DNA of 64,000 nucleotides, taken from IMG/VR virus record IMGVR_UViG_3300046059_000013; one strand, written 5' to 3'. The DNA is from a virus. The notes under the pieces are model-generated. The model did no database searches, was not told the DNA's origin, and saw only the letters and a program-made list of their open reading frames with translations. A program made the position numbers and the translations under genes. Numbering within the stretch: the stretch's first letter is position 1; each line of letters begins with the position of its first letter. Shown here piece after piece: positions 301-53,601 of this stretch.

Positions 301-2706
301 ATGAAGAAAAGCGGAAACGACTGGCGCTCAAGCGGCGCCTACGTCTTTGAACCCAAAGCAGGCCTGTACGACCGCGTTGCTGGCCTCGACCTGGCCTCCC
401 TCTACCCAACCTGCATTTGTAGTGGCAACATCAGCAAGGAAACGCTCATCCCCGAGCCCAAGATTCCCTCCTACAACAAGGACGAGCTGTTTTTCGTGCC
501 GGACCTTGACTCGGAGGAGGCCCGCCTTGACCCCCCCATCGCTTTCTGGACGGGCGAGGAAGGCATCCTCCCGCGCGTGACGAAAGACGTCTGGGAAATC
601 AAAAAGGAACAAGGACGACGAAAGAAAACAGCCGAGGGGGAAGATAAGCAAAGCGCCGAAATACAGTACGACATGTCAAAGATATTGCTCAACTGTTTTG
701 CTCCTGACACGCACGTTGTGACACCTGATGGCATCGTGAACATCAAGCAGCTCGACGAAGGGGACGAAGTCTTCTCGTTGAACCCAGAGACACTAAAGGT
801 TGAGCGCAAGGACGTTACTGAAACCTTCGAGTATGAGTATGATGAAGAGATGGTTCATATCGAGCAGACCTACCTCGACCATCTTGTCACGCCGAACCAT
901 AAGTTCCTGGCGTCCCGAGCTTGGAAGGGACGCGAGGACCTCCAGTTCTTTGAGGCTTCAGACTTGTGCAACCACAAGGTGCCGAATGCAGAAACAGTCT
1001 ACCAAGGAGAAAGACACCATCTCTACACCCTCGAGCGCCCCCAAGAACGTTCCAACGAAGAAGAAACAGAAGAAGAAGAGGAATACGGTTCCGAGGTTCC
1101 ACGAACCTATGACATGAACAACTGGCTCCAGCTTATGGCATGGTTCATTACTGGAGGGGGTGAAACTATCCAAGAGCCGGAATCTTTCGAGGATAACGAA
1201 CGAGGTCGTGCAAAAACCATCGTTATCTCCCAGCACAAGGAGAAGTATCGGGCAGAGATTAAAGCCCTCCTTGAAGAAATGGGGCTGTCCTATAGTGATA
1301 ACTGTGGTGACTTCAAAATTTCGAACGCTATCCTCTATGACCGTCTTGTAGAGGATTGCGGTCGCACGTCTCACGAGAAGACGTTTCCCCTTTGGGTGCT
1401 TGAACTAAGTGAACCTCAACGCCGCCTTTTCTTCAAAACACTCAGAAAAGGCGATGGAGACAAGAGCGCCCCTCGATATACAACAAGTAGCGAAGAGCTA
1501 CGGGACCGCGTTCTGGCTCTCGGTGTCAGCTTGGGGTTCAAGGCACGATATAACGCTGAAGAGACTTATTACCGAGTCTGGTTTAGTGACCACAAAGGCA
1601 CCATCACTAATGGGAATGACCACATCCAAACCAAGGACAACCCCTTCAACAAAGTCTACTGTGTAGAGGTCGAAGATAATCACACGCTCTATGCAGGAAG
1701 GAATGGAAAGTTTGGCTGGACAGGCAATAGCGCCTACGGAACAAGCAATAGCCCGAAATCCCGCCTAAGCGGCATCGAACTCGGCGAAGCCACCGTCTCC
1801 TTCGGACGCCACATCATCAAACAACTCGCCAAAAAAGCACAAGCCCTCAACTACCCGGTCGTCGCCGGTGACACAGACAGCCTCTACCTCGACCTCGACA
1901 ACGAAACCCCCGAACAAATCCAAACCCTTGCCCAAGAACTCACCAACTTCGCCCAGCACGTCGCCGACGACTGCGGAGCCATCGAAACCAACCGATTCCA
2001 ACTCGAACCCGAAGTCATCGCCGAACCAGCCCTCTTCGTCGTCAAAAAACGCTACGCCTTGATGAAAACCTGGGAAGAAGGAACATGGCTCGACAAGCCA
2101 AAACTCAAACCGAAAGGCTTCTACATGATTCGAACCGACTGCCCCGACTACACCAAGGAAATAATGCGCACCACGCTCCTCAAATTGATGCAACACCGAG
2201 AACCGCCCAGCAACGTGTTCGATGATTACGTGAACGAGCGCTATGTTGACGTTCGAGACGGCAACGTAGAACCCTTCCGCGTTGCCTCCCGAAAGAAAAT
2301 CAAAAGCGACCTGCAAACATACCGCGAAGAAGAAGGAAACGGATGGACATACTGGGTCGCTCACGCCGCTTACGAAAGCAACCGACACTTCGACACCTGC
2401 TGGGGAGCAGGAAGCCGACCGTACCTTCTACGACTTAATGACAAGCCAGAAGAGTATGAAGCGAACTACGTTGCCCTCGAAAAGGGGCAAAAGATTCCCG
2501 AAGCGGTAACGATTGACTGGGAACAGCAAGCTCAGAACACGGTCGTGGAAAAGGTTACCCGCATTTTCCAAGCTCTGGACTGTGATGACCGTCTTGAGGT
2601 TGCCGGTCAACGTTCCCTAAGCGAGTATCCTGCATCCCCCACGGACATGGACACGTCGTCCCTTTCCGAGGAGACAAAACAGAAGAGCGTTGCCGAATTT
2701 CTCTAG
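301..2706 (+). CDS. polB: Family B DNA polymerase, polymerase domain with intein
   Basis: Motif A DLASLYP, motif B KILLN|SAYG split by an intein, motif C GDTDS, KKRY motif. Confidence 0.95.
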   Translation: MKKSGNDWRSSGAYVFEPKAGLYDRVAGLDLASLYPTCICSGNISKETLIPEPKIPSYNKDELFFVPDLDSEEARLDPPIAFWTGEEGILPRVTKDVWEIKKEQGRRKKTAEGEDKQSAEIQYDMSKILLNCFAPDTHVVTPDGIVNIKQLDEGDEVFSLNPETLKVERKDVTETFEYEYDEEMVHIEQTYLDHLVTPNHKFLASRAWKGREDLQFFEASDLCNHKVPNAETVYQGERHHLYTLERPQERSNEEETEEEEEYGSEVPRTYDMNNWLQLMAWFITGGGETIQEPESFEDNERGRAKTIVISQHKEKYRAEIKALLEEMGLSYSDNCGDFKISNAILYDRLVEDCGRTSHEKTFPLWVLELSEPQRRLFFKTLRKGDGDKSAPRYTTSSEELRDRVLALGVSLGFKARYNAEETYYRVWFSDHKGTITNGNDHIQTKDNPFNKVYCVEVEDNHTLYAGRNGKFGWTGNSAYGTSNSPKSRLSGIELGEATVSFGRHIIKQLAKKAQALNYPVVAGDTDSLYLDLDNETPEQIQTLAQELTNFAQHVADDCGAIETNRFQLEPEVIAEPALFVVKKRYALMKTWEEGTWLDKPKLKPKGFYMIRTDCPDYTKEIMRTTLLKLMQHREPPSNVFDDYVNERYVDVRDGNVEPFRVASRKKIKSDLQTYREEEGNGWTYWVAHAAYESNRHFDTCWGAGSRPYLLRLNDKPEEYEANYVALEKGQKIPEAVTIDWEQQAQNTVVEKVTRIFQALDCDDRLEVAGQRSLSEYPASPTDMDTSSLSEETKQKSVAEFL
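694..1728 (+). mobile_element. Intein (345 aa) in PolB motif B with LAGLIDADG-type endonuclease domain
   Basis: Starts CFAPDT after KILLN, ends GKFGWTGN before SAYG. Contains block B (LVTPNH), block E (LRKGDG) and a degenerate block C (WFITGG). Confidence 0.92.
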
Positions 2707-6386: not shown

Positions 6387-6597
6387 CCTAGGGGAGTAAA
6401 TTCGGGAAACGTTGATATGGTGGAGGGTGCTTTGTTCGCTGAGCGGGATGCCCCCGGGCCGGGGGTCTCTGTAAAGAAGTTCCCGGTTTCCAACACCCTC
6501 CCGCAGGGTGGAACCCGACACCAGGCCGCAAGGCCGGTCGGAGAAAGCCCCACCCCCGAACATGGGGAGAAGGTCACCACACAGGGCTTATGAAGGA
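6387..6597 (+). ncRNA. Candidate stand-alone TnpB omegaRNA / non-autonomous IS605 derivative
   Basis: 6545-6577 AAGCCCCACCC..TGGGGAGAAGGTCAC matches the right end at 53357-53390. Hairpin-rich non-coding gap with an upstream GAAACGTTGATA promoter-like motif. The left boundary is a guess. Confidence 0.55.
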
Positions 6598-21535: not shown

Positions 21536-21570
21536 GGAACCATACGGCTTTAGCCGTGGGAGGATGTCAG
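21536..21570 (+). mobile_element. Orphan IS605-type right end (hairpin + GGGAGGATGTCAG)
   Basis: 30/35 identical to the reverse complement of 43602-43636, with a compensatory stem change. Confidence 0.7.
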
Positions 21571-22499
21571 TCGTCGGTGAGGAGGATGTTGCCCTCATCG
21601 CTGAGGAGGATGTTGCCCTCATCGGTGACGAAGGTGTCGGCCCCAAACTGGAAGTCCACAGTCCCCTCGTCAGCACCTTCCCCAGCCCGCATAATGAACC
21701 GACCAGCAAGGCGCTTGTCTTCAGGAGGCTGTGCGTTCCGATTCCGGCGAAGCACGACCTGCATCATGCCCGTGACCGTGGACTCGCCTTCCTGCACTCC
21801 GATGTCGGTTAAATCGCGAATGTCCTCGAGGTGATATGCGCCATCTTGCAGGCTGTGGCCGCGGTAGAAAGCGGCAAGGTCAGAAAGGAAGTCCGTGGTC
21901 TCCTCAAGCACGTCGCTCTTTGAGTAGTCGATGCTCGCGTTCGCGTTGCTGGACGGGACCTCACTTCCGTGAATGATGAGGTTCATCATCCGGGTCTCCC
22001 ACGAGATGCGCGTCTCGCTAACGAGACGATGGTTGTAGTCAATCGTGAACTCCGTGTCCTCGTCCGGCGTGTCGCCGCCGTCGAGCCACTTGATTGCATG
22101 AGGAAGCGAACGCAGAGCGTTCGTGAAAATCTCGAAGTCATAGTCCTCGGTGAAGGTGTGATTAGAACCGTTCAAAGTGCCGGAGACGCTGTTAATGGAG
22201 GAGATGTCCTTTTCGTGCACGTCGTAAACGTCCTGCGTGGACGTGTACGTGGTGGTCGTGGTGTCTTGCTTGTTCTTGGAGACGTTTTTGCCGCGTTTGC
22301 TTTTCATCGAGCGCTTGATGTTGCCTGGTTCGATTTCGATGAGGGGAACGCTTTCGCTGGACAGGTCGTCGTGGTCCACGTTCACTTCGGTGCCGTCGAC
22401 GAGGGTAAGGGGGAGTTTGTCCCCGTTTTGCATTTGCACGGGGTCGGCTTTGTCGTGGAGGAACTCGCCGAGCGCTTTGATGGCGTTCGCCGTGACCAT
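21567..22499 (-). CDS. Tail terminator/completion-like protein with inserted Ig-like domain
   Basis: Immediately upstream of the sheath; central beta-rich insert (GSNHTFTEDYDF...PDEDTEFTIDY). Confidence 0.5.
   Translation of the reverse strand: MVTANAIKALGEFLHDKADPVQMQNGDKLPLTLVDGTEVNVDHDDLSSESVPLIEIEPGNIKRSMKSKRGKNVSKNKQDTTTTTYTSTQDVYDVHEKDISSINSVSGTLNGSNHTFTEDYDFEIFTNALRSLPHAIKWLDGGDTPDEDTEFTIDYNHRLVSETRISWETRMMNLIIHGSEVPSSNANASIDYSKSDVLEETTDFLSDLAAFYRGHSLQDGAYHLEDIRDLTDIGVQEGESTVTGMMQVVLRRNRNAQPPEDKRLAGRFIMRAGEGADEGTVDFQFGADTFVTDEGNILLSDEGNILLTDD
21578..21625. repeat. 24-nt tandem duplication (DEGNILL(S/T) x2)
   Basis: TGAGGAGGATGTTGCCCTCATCG(C/G) twice. Confidence 0.95.
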
Positions 22500-42160: not shown

Positions 42161-42190
42161 GCAAGATAAGGGCTACGCACCTGTGTGGAA

Positions 42191-43582
42191 GTGGCTTCCT
42201 CCCCGGCCTTCACGCCGGGGCTTCCTTGTTCATTCACGAGCACCAACCCCCTGAGTGGGTTTGCAACCTCTCGTGTCCAAAGGCGTTGATTCCCCACAGC
42301 CCGTGGGTACTGGTTCGTCGTTGACTTCAAGTTTCTTGATGCCCCGTTGCCGAATCTCACGCGCCGCGTTCTGGTCGCGACCCATCGTGAGCCCGCACTC
42401 AGGGCAATCATGCTCGCGCTGCGACAACGGTTTCGGGCTCCGATGCCCGCACCGGTGACAATCGCTCGTCGTGTGCTTGGCGTTCACGCGGACAAGATGT
42501 CCGCCGTGCTCTTCAAGCTTGTACTCCAAGAACCGGAACAGGGTCCCCCACGCGGCATCATGCACGCTTTGGGCGCGGGAGCCTTGGGTGAGTCCCGTGA
42601 GGTTGTCCTCGACGGCGACCACCTGGTACTCCTCGGCCAGGTACCGTGCGACCTTGTGAAGGTAGTCCCTGCGCTGGTTCTTGATTGTGCGATGCAGTTT
42701 GGCAACCTGTTCGCGTTGCTTGTGCCAATTGTTGCTGCCTTGTTCCTTGCGGGACAAGTGTCGTTGTTCTCTCTGAAGCTTCTGCAAGGACTGTTCGAGG
42801 TGACGAGGGTTGGGAATCGTGTCCCCGTTGCTGAGGGTTAACAACTCCGTGAGGCCCGCGTCCACGCCCATCACGCCGCCTTCGGCCTGGGGCTTGGCGA
42901 GGTTCTCCTCGGGCACGTCGAAGGTGATCAATGCCCACCAGTCGCCGTGTCGGTCTTCTTTTACCGTGCATGTTTTTGCCTTGCAGTTTTCATCCAGCCA
43001 CGGCGGCTTGTCCTCGTGGAACGCTCGAACCCATCCAAGCTTGGACAAGTACACCTCGCCATCCCGGTACTTAAACGAGCCGTGTCCACTATTCCGGGAT
43101 TGGGGATACGTCATCGAGCGGTACGCTGCGCGTCCCTTGTAGCGCGGGTACTCGTGGTTGGTGTCGGGGTTGAAGAAGTTCTGGAAGGCTCGGTCCAGGC
43201 GCTTCACCACGTTTTGCAAGACCTGCGCGGGCGGGTCCTGAAACCGTGGATGGTCCTGCTTGAATTGAACCAATTGGGCCTGTTGCTCGGTTTTGGAGAT
43301 GCTTTCTCCGTACTCTTTCCACAGGAGTTCTCGATGTTCAAGGCACAAGTTGTACAGTGTCCGACATAGGCACAGCGTCCAGCCCAACTCCTCCTGCTGG
43401 TCTTGCGAAGGGTACAATCGGAGTTTTAGGGTGCGTTTGGGCATTGGGCGTCGTGCGGATATACGCAAGGGGGTTGTGGGGTTTGGGTCTTTTGGTCAGA
43501 GTGTGCGTGGTGCCATGCTCCTTGTTCCGACCCCTTCGATTCATCCCCAACCTAAAGAACAGGAACCCTTTTGACGGAAGAG
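42191..43582 (-). mobile_element. IS605-family element, tnpB only (IS-1)
   Basis: Right end CCCCGGC..GCCGGGGAGGAAGCCAC. Left end TTAA|CTCTTCC...TTTAGGTTGGGGATGAATCG resembles the left end of IS-3. Confidence 0.75.
42230..43444 (-). CDS. tnpB: TnpB RNA-guided nuclease
   Basis: RuvC D (GVDAG), E (AVED), D (RDQNAA); CxxC zinc ribbon. Confidence 0.95.
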   Translation of the reverse strand: MPKRTLKLRLYPSQDQQEELGWTLCLCRTLYNLCLEHRELLWKEYGESISKTEQQAQLVQFKQDHPRFQDPPAQVLQNVVKRLDRAFQNFFNPDTNHEYPRYKGRAAYRSMTYPQSRNSGHGSFKYRDGEVYLSKLGWVRAFHEDKPPWLDENCKAKTCTVKEDRHGDWWALITFDVPEENLAKPQAEGGVMGVDAGLTELLTLSNGDTIPNPRHLEQSLQKLQREQRHLSRKEQGSNNWHKQREQVAKLHRTIKNQRRDYLHKVARYLAEEYQVVAVEDNLTGLTQGSRAQSVHDAAWGTLFRFLEYKLEEHGGHLVRVNAKHTTSDCHRCGHRSPKPLSQREHDCPECGLTMGRDQNAAREIRQRGIKKLEVNDEPVPTGCGESTPLDTRGCKPTQGVGARE

Positions 43583-43800
43583 TTAAACCCATCGCCCCGA
43601 ACTGACATCCTCCCACGACTTAAGTCGTGGGGTTCCACGGTCACAGACCGTGCCCCCGACTCCGGCAGGTTCCCGTCGTCGGCGGTTTCCTTGGCGGCTT
43701 CAAGTTCTTGCTCGGCGGCTTGAACGTGTTCGAGAGCTTCCTCGTTCACGCTCCCGGGCCTTTGGTGAAGACGTGTTGCTCGTCGCAACGAGGACACCAC
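43552..43800 (-). CDS. Small protein whose C-terminus runs through the orphan right end
   Basis: Helical N-terminus, then EPHDLSRGRMS (typical tnpB-end translation). Confidence 0.45.
   Translation of the reverse strand: MVSSLRRATRLHQRPGSVNEEALEHVQAAEQELEAAKETADDGNLPESGARSVTVEPHDLSRGRMSVRGDGFNSSVKRVPVL
43602..43636 (-). mobile_element. Orphan IS605-type right end
   Basis: GGAACCCCACGAC-TTAA-GTCGTGGGAGGATGTCAG with no tnpB upstream. Confidence 0.75.
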
Positions 43801-48531: not shown

Positions 48532-49850
48532 GTAAACTACCCGTCCCGAGCTTGAGCGGGCTCGGAACGGGCTTTGCCTGTGTTCTCCCCCTCTAACGAC
48601 GCATCATGAGTGGCGTCGCACGAGAAACACTCGTTCGGGGTCATCGTTCCAGACGTTAAGGCCAGTTTACCGTGGCCCGTGCCCACGGACGACTTTTGGT
48701 CCATGGACACAAGGTACTTGTACCCGATTGACTTAGCAGCGTTGTAGTCCCGGTCGTTCTCGTACCCGCACGCCTGGCACGAAAACCAACGGTCCTCAAG
48801 GTTCTCTTTGCTGGTGTGCCCGCACCGGCTGCACGTGCGCGAAGTGTTCACGGGGTTCACCTGTTCAACCTGGATACCCAAGGCTTGGGCTTTGTACTCT
48901 ACGTACTCCACGAGTTGCCGGAACGCCCACTCGTGGTAGCGTTTCCCGCCTTGCAATTGGTCGCGGATGTTCGTGAGGTCCTCGAACGCGATTACGTCCA
49001 CGCCTTGCTCGGCGGCGTGGTCTACAAGGCGTCGGCTCACCACGTGCAGGTGGTGTTGGTTCCAGCGGGCCTCGCGACTGCTTAAGCGTTCAAGGGTGCA
49101 GTGGGCGCTTTGCGTGCCTGTTTGTTGGAGGCTGGCGCGCGTTTTCTCGTATTCTTCCCTGCGGTGGTTCAGCGGGCCGCCGGTGTGGAAGTGGGCGGTG
49201 CTGGTGGTGGCGAGGTTTTCGATGCCGAGGTCCACGCCCAAGACCGTGGGGTGTTGGGGCGTCTCTGCATCGGTTGTCTCGCGCTTCATGACGACGTGCA
49301 GCCACCAGTCGCCGTCCCGGTGGTGCAGCGTGGCGCCACCAGGCTCGTAGTCCTCGCTTAACAGGTAGTCGCCGTGCGGGGTTCCTTCGGGTTTGTTGGA
49401 GAGGTGGAGTTGGGCTTGGATTCTTCCGTTTGTGGTGGCTAGGCTTACTGTTTTGTTTTGGAGTTGAATTGTGTAGCAGCGTTGGTCGTAGTTCACGGTT
49501 GCACTCGTGAACCTGGGCTTGCCGGGGTTGTGGCCTTGGCGGCGGCGTTCCACGCAAGCTTTGAGGGCTTCTGCCGCTGCGCTGCGAGCCTGTGTCACGT
49601 GGTTGGCGTGGAGGTCTGAGCTGGTTTTGATGGGGTGGTAGGTGGCGTCGTGGAGTTCCGACTCGCGTGCCTCCAGGTTGCTGTTGTCGTTCCAGCCTTC
49701 GTCCACGACGCGGTTTGCTGCCGCTCGGTACTGGTCCAGCGTGTCCCAGAGGTCGTCTTTGGCGTCGCTGGGGACGGTGAGTCGGATTCGGACGGTGCGA
49801 CGTGTCTCTGCCACCAGAACACTCATGGTGGTGGGCCTACATGGTTCCTT
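48532..49850 (-). mobile_element. IS1341-type element (IS-2); left end not resolved
   Basis: Right end AAAGCCCGTTCCGAGC...GCTCGGGACGGGTAGTTTAC. Confidence 0.7.
48537..49826 (-). CDS. tnpB: TnpB, haloarchaeal IS1341 type
   Basis: RRTVRIRL start; GVDLG, FEDL, DRDYNAA; CSRC..CQAC. Confidence 0.95.
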   Translation of the reverse strand: MSVLVAETRRTVRIRLTVPSDAKDDLWDTLDQYRAAANRVVDEGWNDNSNLEARESELHDATYHPIKTSSDLHANHVTQARSAAAEALKACVERRRQGHNPGKPRFTSATVNYDQRCYTIQLQNKTVSLATTNGRIQAQLHLSNKPEGTPHGDYLLSEDYEPGGATLHHRDGDWWLHVVMKRETTDAETPQHPTVLGVDLGIENLATTSTAHFHTGGPLNHRREEYEKTRASLQQTGTQSAHCTLERLSSREARWNQHHLHVVSRRLVDHAAEQGVDVIAFEDLTNIRDQLQGGKRYHEWAFRQLVEYVEYKAQALGIQVEQVNPVNTSRTCSRCGHTSKENLEDRWFSCQACGYENDRDYNAAKSIGYKYLVSMDQKSSVGTGHGKLALTSGTMTPNECFSCDATHDASLEGENTGKARSEPAQARDG

Positions 49851-49911
49851 TGGCCGATTCCTCTCCGACCCAACCCTAGCGGGTTGGGAAAGAGTTTCCT
49901 CGGCCGATAAG

Positions 49912-50457
49912 ATGAGCAACATGGAGAGACTTGTAGCACTCGACCTTGAAACCGGCGGCCTTGACCCCTCCGAGCACTCCATCATCGAAATAGCTGCGTA
50001 CCATCCCGAGAGCGGGGAAACGATACAGCGCCTTGTCCGCAACGAAACGTACCATGTCACGGACCAGGCGATGGACGTGCATGGATACAAGATTCGCGAC
50101 CTCGCCAGCGCAAACTACGTCGGCATCGTGGACGAGGAAGTAAAGAATTGGCTCGACGAAACCGTTGACGGGAACGCCATCGCGGTAGGAATGAACGTTT
50201 ACTTTGATTTGGCTTGTTTGGGGGAGCACATGCCGCAAACGGCGAGCAGGTTCAGCCATCGCACGCTGGATGTTACTTCCCTTCAGTTCTTCCGAGATTG
50301 TTGTAGAGGCCAGCGTCTTGGAGCATCCGCAAGCTACTTCAAGAATCACGTCTTCGAGGACGAATACACGCACTCGGCGCTTGACGACGCGAAGGTCGCG
50401 TGGAAGGTTGTCGAAGCACTCATCAGCGACGTTGACAAAGAGGTGTTTCCATCGTGA
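49912..50457 (+). CDS. DEDDh 3'-5' exonuclease
   Basis: ALDLETGG, NVYFD, HSALDD. Confidence 0.9.
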   Translation: MSNMERLVALDLETGGLDPSEHSIIEIAAYHPESGETIQRLVRNETYHVTDQAMDVHGYKIRDLASANYVGIVDEEVKNWLDETVDGNAIAVGMNVYFDLACLGEHMPQTASRFSHRTLDVTSLQFFRDCCRGQRLGASASYFKNHVFEDEYTHSALDDAKVAWKVVEALISDVDKEVFPS

Positions 50458-51524: not shown

Positions 51525-51734
51525 GCGAGAACGAGGGATTCGTGCCTACGTTGACGCTTGCGTGCCAGTCGTTTGGTTGCGAGGAGGAGACGCGCGTGAC
51601 GGATGCGCTCGAGGAGGCCACGTGGCGCTGTCCCGAACACATTAGCTTCTCCTGCGCGAAGCCCCCGCCCTTCAGGGTGGGGATGAAGCGCCCAAACACC
51701 TATACGTACAAGGGTCTTTCCATGCGGCAGAGCC

Positions 51735-52139
51735 GTGGACTACGATACGAAGTCGGGAAGCCACTCCATCTACGCTCTCCAGTACCACCTCGTGTGGTGC
51801 ACCAAGTATAGGGAACTCCTGATGCTTCCCGAGGCCCGGGATGCCCTGAAGGAGAAGATCCACGATCTGTTTGAACAGTCTGGCATAGACATCCTCAACA
51901 TTGAGGCGGATGCCGACCACGTGCACGTTCTCTTCCGAGGAACGCCGACGGTGACGCTGTCCCGGGTCGTCAACAAGATGAAGGGGGCCACGAGCAAACA
52001 CCTTCGGTCGCAGTTCCCAGAGCTGGGTGCAAGGGATCACCTCTGGAGTCCTGCCTACTTCCTAGCTACGACGGGGCAGGTCACGCTGGACCGGTTGATG
52101 GAGTATGTGGACGAGCACGCCGAGGAGCGTGAAGCCTAG
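51735..52139 (+). CDS. tnpA: TnpA Y1 HUH transposase
   Basis: YHLVWCTKYR, DHVHVL, LWSPAYF. Confidence 0.95.
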   Translation: MDYDTKSGSHSIYALQYHLVWCTKYRELLMLPEARDALKEKIHDLFEQSGIDILNIEADADHVHVLFRGTPTVTLSRVVNKMKGATSKHLRSQFPELGARDHLWSPAYFLATTGQVTLDRLMEYVDEHAEEREA

Positions 52140-53350
52140 TGCCCATGCGCACCCTAGAACTCCGGTTGTATCCGTCCCAGGACCAGCACGAGGCGATGGG
52201 GCAAACGCTGGGCTTGTGTCGGATGCTCTACAATCTCTGCAAGGAGCACCGCGAACTCGCCTACCGGGAGTACGGGGAGAGCGTGTCCTGGTATGAGCAG
52301 AAGCGACAGTTGGTTCAACTCAAGAAGGACCACCCTATGTTCCAGGACGTGCATAGCCAAGTGCTCCAGAATGTGACCGAGCGCGTGGACACCGCGTTCC
52401 AGGCGTTCTTCGACGGTCGCAACGACTACCCAAACTGGAAGAGCCGCAGCGACTACCGCTCCTTCACGTACCCGCAGGAGGGCGGGTTCCGGTACCAGGA
52501 TGGCGAAGTGTACCTGTCGAAGATTGGGTGGGTGCGAGCCTTCCACGAAGACAAACCACCCTGGTACGACCCCGACACCTGCACACCCAAGACCTGCACG
52601 GTGCGCGAGGAACGGTTCGGGGACTGGTGGGCAAGCATCACGTTCGACGTGCCCGAGGAGAATGTGGTGCGTGAGCCCGCGGACCCGGGCCTCGTGGGCC
52701 TCGACGCGGGCCTCACCACGCTGGCCACGTTGAGCGATGGCACCAAGATCACGAATCCACGCCACCTCAAGGAGTCCCAGGAACGCCTCGCCAAGGCGCG
52801 ACGGGACCTGTCACGCAAAGAACGAGGAAGCAACAACTGGCATAAGCAGAGGCAGCGCGTAGCGAAGCTCGAACGCAGGGCCGCCCGCAAACGTCAAGAC
52901 CACTTGCACAAGGTGTCTCGACACCTGGCCGAGTCCTACACGTGCGTCGCCGTCGAGGGAAACCTAGCGGGACTCACCCAATCAGAGGACCACGCCCAAG
53001 CCGTTCACGACGCCGCCTGGGGCACCCTGTTCGAGTTCCTGGAGTACAAGCTCGATGAACACGGAGGCCGGCTCGTTCGCCTAGAGGGCGAGAATCAGGC
53101 CTACAGCACCAAGGACTGTAGTGAGTGCGGGTACCGCAACCACGATTTGTCCTTGGAGGACCGATCATGGACCTGCCCCGACTGCGGGGCAATGCACGAT
53201 CGGGACATCAACGCGGCCAGGAACCTAGAGCAACGCGCACGCACCAAGCTCCAAGACGAAGGAACCGACGTACCCATGGACCGTGGGGAATCAACGCCTT
53301 TGGACACGAGAGGTTGCAAACCCACTCAGGGGGTTGGTGCTCGTGAATGA
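52139..53350 (+). CDS. tnpB: TnpB RNA-guided nuclease
   Basis: GLDAG, AVEG, RDINAA; CSEC..CPDC. Confidence 0.95.
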   Translation: MPMRTLELRLYPSQDQHEAMGQTLGLCRMLYNLCKEHRELAYREYGESVSWYEQKRQLVQLKKDHPMFQDVHSQVLQNVTERVDTAFQAFFDGRNDYPNWKSRSDYRSFTYPQEGGFRYQDGEVYLSKIGWVRAFHEDKPPWYDPDTCTPKTCTVREERFGDWWASITFDVPEENVVREPADPGLVGLDAGLTTLATLSDGTKITNPRHLKESQERLAKARRDLSRKERGSNNWHKQRQRVAKLERRAARKRQDHLHKVSRHLAESYTCVAVEGNLAGLTQSEDHAQAVHDAAWGTLFEFLEYKLDEHGGRLVRLEGENQAYSTKDCSECGYRNHDLSLEDRSWTCPDCGAMHDRDINAARNLEQRARTKLQDEGTDVPMDRGESTPLDTRGCKPTQGVGARE

Positions 53351-53601
53351 ACAAGGAAGCCCCACCCTTCTAGGGTGGGGAGGAGGTCACCGAGTTTGTT
53401 CCTGCTCCGGGCACGAGCAAGGCCGAAAGGCTGGGTTGCAAGTGTGAGCGCGTGGAAGGCGTGGCGAATGGGCCTCTCTTTGTTGCTTTGGGTTGCAAGA
53501 TGCATTCGAGTCAAGCTGAAGATTGACTTCTTCTCCGGTCTCTTCTTACGGGTCGGAGAGACCCGCAAAGTTGATGCATTAACAACCGCCTGGCAACAAG
53601 G

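Follow-up and report, generated by a model that had tools for sequence, protein, structure and literature searches.

The window analysed here is a stretch of 64,000 nucleotides from a viral contig of 91 kb. Genes on the contig encode a head maturation protease, proteins resembling a tail sheath and a tape measure, and a family B DNA polymerase that is distantly similar to the polymerases of haloarchaeal tailed viruses. Judged by these genes, the contig appears to belong to a tailed halovirus, that is, an archaeal virus of salt lakes. The polymerase ORF (301-2706, plus strand) has matches to Hint and intein-splicing domains and thus probably contains an intein. When the neighbouring virus genes were compared with IMG/VR, neither a related virus nor an empty site for element A was found.

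Two transposon-like elements of the IS200/IS605 family, termed A and B, lie in the window in opposite orientations. Their features are as follows.

43445-43582, minus strand: left end of A, after TTAA (43583-43586), homologous in a left-end alignment to those of three relatives
42230-43444, minus strand: tnpB-A, 404 aa, intact and ISDra2-like, with an ATG at 43444 (Pfam and PDB matches, invariant residues)
42191-42310, minus strand: predicted omegaRNA scaffold of A, matched at full length by covariance model R1 (137.0 bits), with a tail ending ...GCCAC
42217-42297, minus strand: identical core, copy A, defined by exact identity to 53283-53363 and by its position relative to the ORF end
42201-42220, minus strand: terminal (right-end) hairpin of A, element-specific (single-stranded DNA fold -9.1 kcal/mol; covarying helix 6)
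42171-42190, minus strand: predicted guide of A, the first 20 nt past the right end (20-nt length assumed)
51646-51734, plus strand: left end of B, after TTAG (51642-51645), with a subterminal hairpin at 51663-51682
51735-52139, plus strand: tnpA of B, a Y1 / IS200-like transposase of 134 aa (Pfam Y1_Tnp, E 1.4e-33, 116 bits)
52139-53350, plus strand: tnpB-B, 403 aa, intact, with a GTG start overlapping the tnpA stop by 1 base (Pfam, ISDra2 alignment)
53270-53390, plus strand: predicted omegaRNA scaffold of B (R1, 137.5 bits), with a tail ending ...GTCAC
53283-53363, plus strand: identical core, copy B (exact identity, repeat finder)
53360-53380, plus strand: terminal (right-end) hairpin of B, element-specific (single-stranded DNA fold -10.6 kcal/mol; matches the left-end hairpin of B)
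53391-53410, plus strand: predicted guide of B, the first 20 nt past the right end (20-nt length assumed)

Both TnpB proteins match the Pfam families HTH_OrfB_IS605, OrfB_IS605 (RuvC), and the Cas12f1-like_TNB zinc ribbon, all above curated cut-offs, and the structures 8bf8, 8exa, and 8h1j match TnpB-A at E about 1e-45. In an alignment of the six members of the protein family described below, D203, E287, D365, C337, C340, C355, and C358 are invariant (numbering of the 412-aa ORF of A), and a residue-level alignment places the catalytic Asp, Glu, and Asp of TnpB-B on those of ISDra2 TnpB.

Element B is a complete IS605 element, with tnpA, tnpB, and subterminal hairpins at both ends. Excising 51646-53390, so that 51645 is joined to 53391, restores a single ORF of 86 aa, which fixes the boundaries of B at 51646 and 53390|53391; the predicted guide of B lies within this interrupted ORF. 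As single-stranded DNA, the subterminal hairpin at the left end of B folds at -7.4 kcal/mol and resembles the one at its right end. Element A, in which no tnpA separates tnpB-A from the left end, is of the IS1341 (tnpB-only) type. It folds a subterminal hairpin at its right end; at its left end the value is only -0.3 kcal/mol, no better than shuffles, and the stem there (43540-43572, minus strand) includes G-T pairs and one mismatch. The left-end hairpin of A is therefore predicted to be decayed. Because this hairpin no longer folds, A looks stranded for transposition with its nuclease gene intact, and it may be immobile and yet retained in the virus. No match to element A was found by blastn among GenBank phages.

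The motifs beside the left ends had been read as TTAA for A and TTAG for B. This reading agrees with the aligned left ends and with the restoration of an ORF on excision of B. The aligned flanks of relatives read TTAC, TTAT, and TTAA, so the flanking motif of the family may be TTAN.

Between A and B lies a third, longer TnpB-like ORF (48537-50090, minus strand; 517 aa; OrfB_IS605 and TNB domains). No match to the scaffold model at E < 1 was found in its 3' region.

Close relatives of these TnpB proteins are rare. Among 5.8 billion proteins, only six belong to the family (54-70% identity), namely TnpB-A, TnpB-B, and four others, which we label L005, L006, L007, and L009 and which are found on short metagenome or MAG contigs. 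A search started from TnpB-B returned the same six members, and the next relatives beyond them are at 40% identity. A contig search of the genome collection with TnpB-A gave relatives at no more than 30% identity. One of the relatives lies in a MAG, and searches of 21 genomes of its class and 401 sampled genomes of its phylum added no close member. Gene bodies in the family have dN/dS near 0.2, and for the bodies of A and B dN/dS is 0.33/1.58. The gene bodies yield the tree ((A,L005),L006),(B,(L007,L009)), in which all forks are supported and A and B fall in different clades. At the 3' ends of L005, L006, L007, and L009, the terminal hairpins, the tails, and the variant of the innermost stem (AA/UU versus GG/CC plus 5 nt within the family) conflict with this tree. 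These sequence patterns hint either at recurrent exchange of modules in the family or at convergence among a few stable GC stems.

The feature that sets A and B apart lies at the 3' ends of their tnpB genes. The first-pass annotation had claimed a perfect match of 81 nt, and a script comparison confirms that 53283-53363 equals the reverse complement of 42217-42297 at 81/81 bases. A repeat finder lengthens the match to 94 nt at 97% (42217-42310 and 53270-53363). The two cores are inverted relative to each other and lie 10,959 nt apart. A 38-nt piece of the core occurs at these two sites only in the window, with none expected in 100 shuffles. The same exact 38-mer was not found in IMG/VR, nor was the exact core found in the two other collections scanned. 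Searching with a degenerate core pattern yielded only a distant element (L010/L011), a chance match (L012), and an orphan unit on an IMG/VR contig (L013), to which we return below.

Each core comprises about the last 66 coding nt of tnpB and about 13-15 nt beyond. The TGA stop lies within the core of both copies (42230-42232 for tnpB-A). The proteins as a whole are far less similar: the annotation had estimated roughly 60% identity by eye, and BLASTP gives 62% (255/410). Similar identity along the whole genes, which the annotation had named as a refutation of its claim, is not seen. In 60-nt windows, the DNA of A and B is 50-80% identical over the remaining gene and about 20-45% identical outside the elements. 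Identical runs reach at most 37 nt in 5000 column shuffles of the A-B alignment and at most 29 nt in the remaining pairs of family members. Identity also ends abruptly at the terminal hairpins, whose stems had been described as different (GGC/GCC versus ACCC/GGGT). The difference is seen in both right ends, where the stems are CCCCGGC/GCCGGGG in A and CCCCACCC/GGGTGGGG in B.

Several observations indicate what the identical stretch encodes. In all six family members, the last ~120 nt up to ...GTCAC are conserved and similarity is lost immediately afterwards, and 64 of the 120 scaffold positions are invariant. The architecture common to A and B consists of a first hairpin, a central domain of three stems, the terminal right-end hairpin, and a 3' tail. 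RNAalifold together with an explicit pair count gives 33 pairs, with 96.5% of cells paired, versus at most 53% in controls with slid partners. Changes on both sides of a pair that preserve pairing occur in 11/33 pairs among the six sequences, and in 22/33 pairs among twelve sequences whose alignment was recovered by and fitted to the covariance model, which favours structure. Folds of single sequences are not distinguishable from shuffles (z about -0.8), and only the comparative structure is informative. At gathering thresholds, no Rfam family was found anywhere in the window. The 81-nt stretch, which begins in the 3' arm of the first scaffold hairpin and reaches 4 nt into the terminal hairpin, is thus predicted to be the central domain of the omegaRNA scaffold of the two elements. 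The annotation had called it an omegaRNA core, a designation that agrees with a covariation-supported structure ending at the transposon right end.

If the scaffold is arranged as predicted, it would overlap the last ~25 codons of tnpB and run to the right end of the element, and the flank beyond would serve as the guide. Both predicted guides are unique in the window, where no second target of either was found.

The overlap with tnpB means that the core is also read as protein. However, dN is about equal to dS in the C-terminal tail in other pairs of family members, which indicates that the stretch is constrained as RNA and not as protein. The alignment of both proteins with ISDra2 TnpB stops near residue 370, with the C-terminal tail outside the conserved fold. 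The identical 21-residue protein tails of A and B are a by-product of the RNA constraint.

Three other units resemble parts of the scaffold. A right-end-like unit at 43602-43707 (minus strand) has the hairpin CCCACGAC-TTAA-GTCGTGGG and the tail GAGGATGTCAG and reaches 31 bits under the scaffold model; it shares its strand with A, ends 19 nt before the TTAA and left end of A, and has a near copy of its hairpin at 21536-21571 (inverted repeat I4). A stand-alone unit at 6448-6577 (plus strand; 22 bits), in a gap without a credible ORF, matches the first hairpin, the terminal hairpin, and the tail ...GGTCAC of the model. The orphan unit L013 (positions 312-405 of a 37.9-kb IMG/VR contig; 56 bits) directly follows the stop of an acidic ORF and has no tnpB upstream; it is related to the tnpB-linked unit of L010/L011 (64 bits), with the innermost stem deleted.

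It remains to explain why the core is the same at every base in A and B. The annotation had offered gene conversion or strong selection. Under purifying selection alone, the double constraint of encoding a protein tail and a structured RNA would freeze every base; many scaffold positions are invariant, and the structure is clearly selected. However, the four relatives outside A and B vary at 39 of the 81 core columns, and core identity in other family pairs is 62-81%. Pairs drawn from different clades differ at 17-26 of the 81 core columns, whereas A and B differ at 0. A rough product of per-column match frequencies puts the chance of full identity at 10^-17, and A and B have in common five core states that are found in no relative. 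Together with the absence of a protein-level freeze noted above, these data make selection as the sufficient cause highly improbable.

Tree comparisons point instead to conversion. The gene bodies reject a clade of A with B (p-AU 4e-69). Conversely, when fixed topologies were compared with IQ-TREE, the core rejected the body topology, at a modest p-AU of 0.018 from its 81 columns, and three trees that keep A and B together could not be distinguished. At informative sites in the triplet of A, B, and L005, the matches of A over the gene body number 215 with its sister L005 and 126 with B; over the core they number 0 and 18 (body versus core, Fisher p = 4e-8). The entire RNA region of ~130 nt, including the hairpin, does not reject the grouping of A with L005 (p 0.23). 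These comparisons draw on a small baseline, as six family members are known. Of the two causes offered by the annotation, conversion is thus supported by the tree conflict and the five private states, and selection by itself is contradicted by the differences among relatives.

An artefact of assembly is a natural concern with a sequence that appears to come from a metagenome and has no close relative on record. Similar cores could have been merged into a consensus by bubble popping, or two genomes could have been joined through a shared k-mer. However, both cores have unique, in-frame flanks on either side, compensatory hairpin differences begin right beside the identical tract, and usual reads are longer than 81 nt. 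The single ORF restored by excising B also argues against a false join. An assembler may have smoothed a few true differences between the cores, which would leave the conclusion unchanged, because identity would still be far above the 62-81% of the family. Nothing in the analysis suggests collapse of the repeat during assembly, the other outcome that the annotation had named as a refutation. We regard an artefact as very unlikely.

We consider it likely that the identity reflects constraint on the RNA together with a short gene-conversion tract that is recent and non-reciprocal. According to this proposal, a short non-reciprocal recombination event would have copied the central domain between the elements, over the ordinary constraint on the RNA. 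The tract would extend from the first scaffold hairpin to 4 bases into the terminal hairpin; because it stops there, each element would have kept its own right-end hairpin, tail, and guide. The exchange might have been a conversion between the inverted copies 11 kb apart, or it might have taken place in an earlier host replicon that both elements shared. In either setting, copying would have been recent enough that zero differences have accumulated. Template switching would, speculatively, fit the fact that both tract ends fall inside hairpins.

Because the copies are inverted, a reciprocal crossover within the cores could in principle have flipped the 11-kb segment and thereby swapped the right ends and guides of A and B. 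The terminal hairpin of B is like that of L005, the sister of A, which speaks for such a swap. However, the flanks of B join into one ORF and the left and right hairpins of B match each other, which shows that B retains its own right end. The event was therefore presumably non-reciprocal, and we give a crossover almost no credence.

A further alternative is that A or B is a chimera that took its core from a third, unsampled element before entering the virus, so that the match arose second-hand. The resemblance of the B hairpin to that of L005 could be cited here as well, as could that of the A hairpin to those of L006 and L009, and such mosaic-looking hairpins and tails hint at recurring exchange in the family. 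This origin seems unlikely, although it deserves some weight. The cores show zero differences, their five private states are common only to the co-resident copy, and the core was not found elsewhere in the scanned collections; the simplest account is copying directly from one element to the other.

If direct conversion is accepted, there is a slight preference for B as the donor. L007, from the clade of B, has the most similar core; L005, the sister of A, has a different stem variant, GG/CC and 5 nt longer; and A is apparently the decayed copy.

The proposed exchange has consequences for how the two nucleases might work together. Outside the core, the first hairpins of the two scaffolds differ by one loop change and by two changes that preserve pairing; their terminal hairpins have different inner pairs and loops, and two bases of the tail also differ. 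Most differences among family variants are compensatory, a pattern suggesting that the RNA is recognized by shape. Because those between A and B are pair-preserving or loop changes plus two tail bases, it is plausible, purely by inference, that nucleases A and B could load each other's guide RNA. If the flanking motif is TTAN, cross-loaded complexes would still find targets.

Extending this idea, A and B could act in the virus as a single two-guide system, with both omegaRNAs open to each nuclease and the scaffold kept uniform by repeated conversion, much as CRISPR repeats are uniform. The orphan right-end-like units at 43602-43707 and 6448-6577 would then add guides, and the arrangement would be a naturally occurring step between transposon nucleases with one guide and arrays with many. 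We think it quite improbable that the elements function in this way.

The more general implication, for which A and B are a natural example with statistical support, is that the central omegaRNA scaffold may be a separable module that can be transferred between TnpB proteins of 62% identity with both genes remaining intact. It is relevant to the closeness of co-evolution between TnpB and its RNA, to cross-talk versus orthogonality of paralogues in one genome, and to chimeric scaffold design for compact genome editors. The analysis also documents a six-sequence TnpB family with a defined RNA structure, including a full IS605 element and a stranded partner in an archaeal virus.

Among natural proteins with solved structures, the best relative of TnpB-A and TnpB-B is ISDra2 TnpB of Deinococcus radiodurans (8exa, 8bf8, 8h1j). 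It matches both at E about 1e-45 over nearly the full length and is of the same size, and the catalytic residues and zinc finger align. It is only about 30-40% identical to them; the comparison covers protein and layout. In ISDra2, too, the 3' end of the gene is shared with the guide-RNA scaffold, which stops at the right end and is followed by the flank as guide. The ISDra2 flanking motif is TTGAT, whereas that of A and B reads TTAN; element A, in addition, is without TnpA.

A second comparison is with the IS1341-type tnpB genes of Halobacterium salinarum. These produce sotRNAs with an "RE-like tetraloop" (Gomes-Filho et al. 2015, PMC4615843), sotRNAs being sense transcripts over the 3' end of tnpB-only elements in haloarchaea (PMC4615843). 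Like the predicted scaffolds of A and B, sotRNAs have a stable hairpin near the 3' end that corresponds to the right-end hairpin, and the terminal hairpin and tail of the family resemble the "RE-like tetraloop". A further likeness is the UUCA loop at this place in L005 and L006; the loops of A (GUGAAG) and B (UUCUA) are different. Exchange between paralogues is not described in that paper (PMC4615843). The 3' consensus of the Rfam family HgcC (RF00062) aligns almost letter for letter with the terminal hairpin and GGGGAGGAGGUCA tail of B. Membership in HgcC was rejected, as the score is 15.4 bits versus a gathering score of 50 and the identical central domain lies outside the model.

The process proposed here also has a precedent. 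Gene conversion among co-resident IS copies is non-reciprocal and includes immobile copies, according to the work of Cordaux (2009) as cited in PMC7290912. The likeness lies in non-reciprocal copying between co-resident copies, one of which, A, has an apparently decayed left-end hairpin. The difference is that the tract here is only ~81 nt long, matches an RNA scaffold module, and joins elements whose proteins are only 62% identical. In the literature, we found no earlier account of a conversion tract that is limited to the omegaRNA scaffold and links diverged paralogues. TnpB-omegaRNA systems and tnpB-only elements are already known, as are conversion among IS copies and the presence of IS elements in haloviruses; the present case is one of module exchange within a known system and not a new kind of system.
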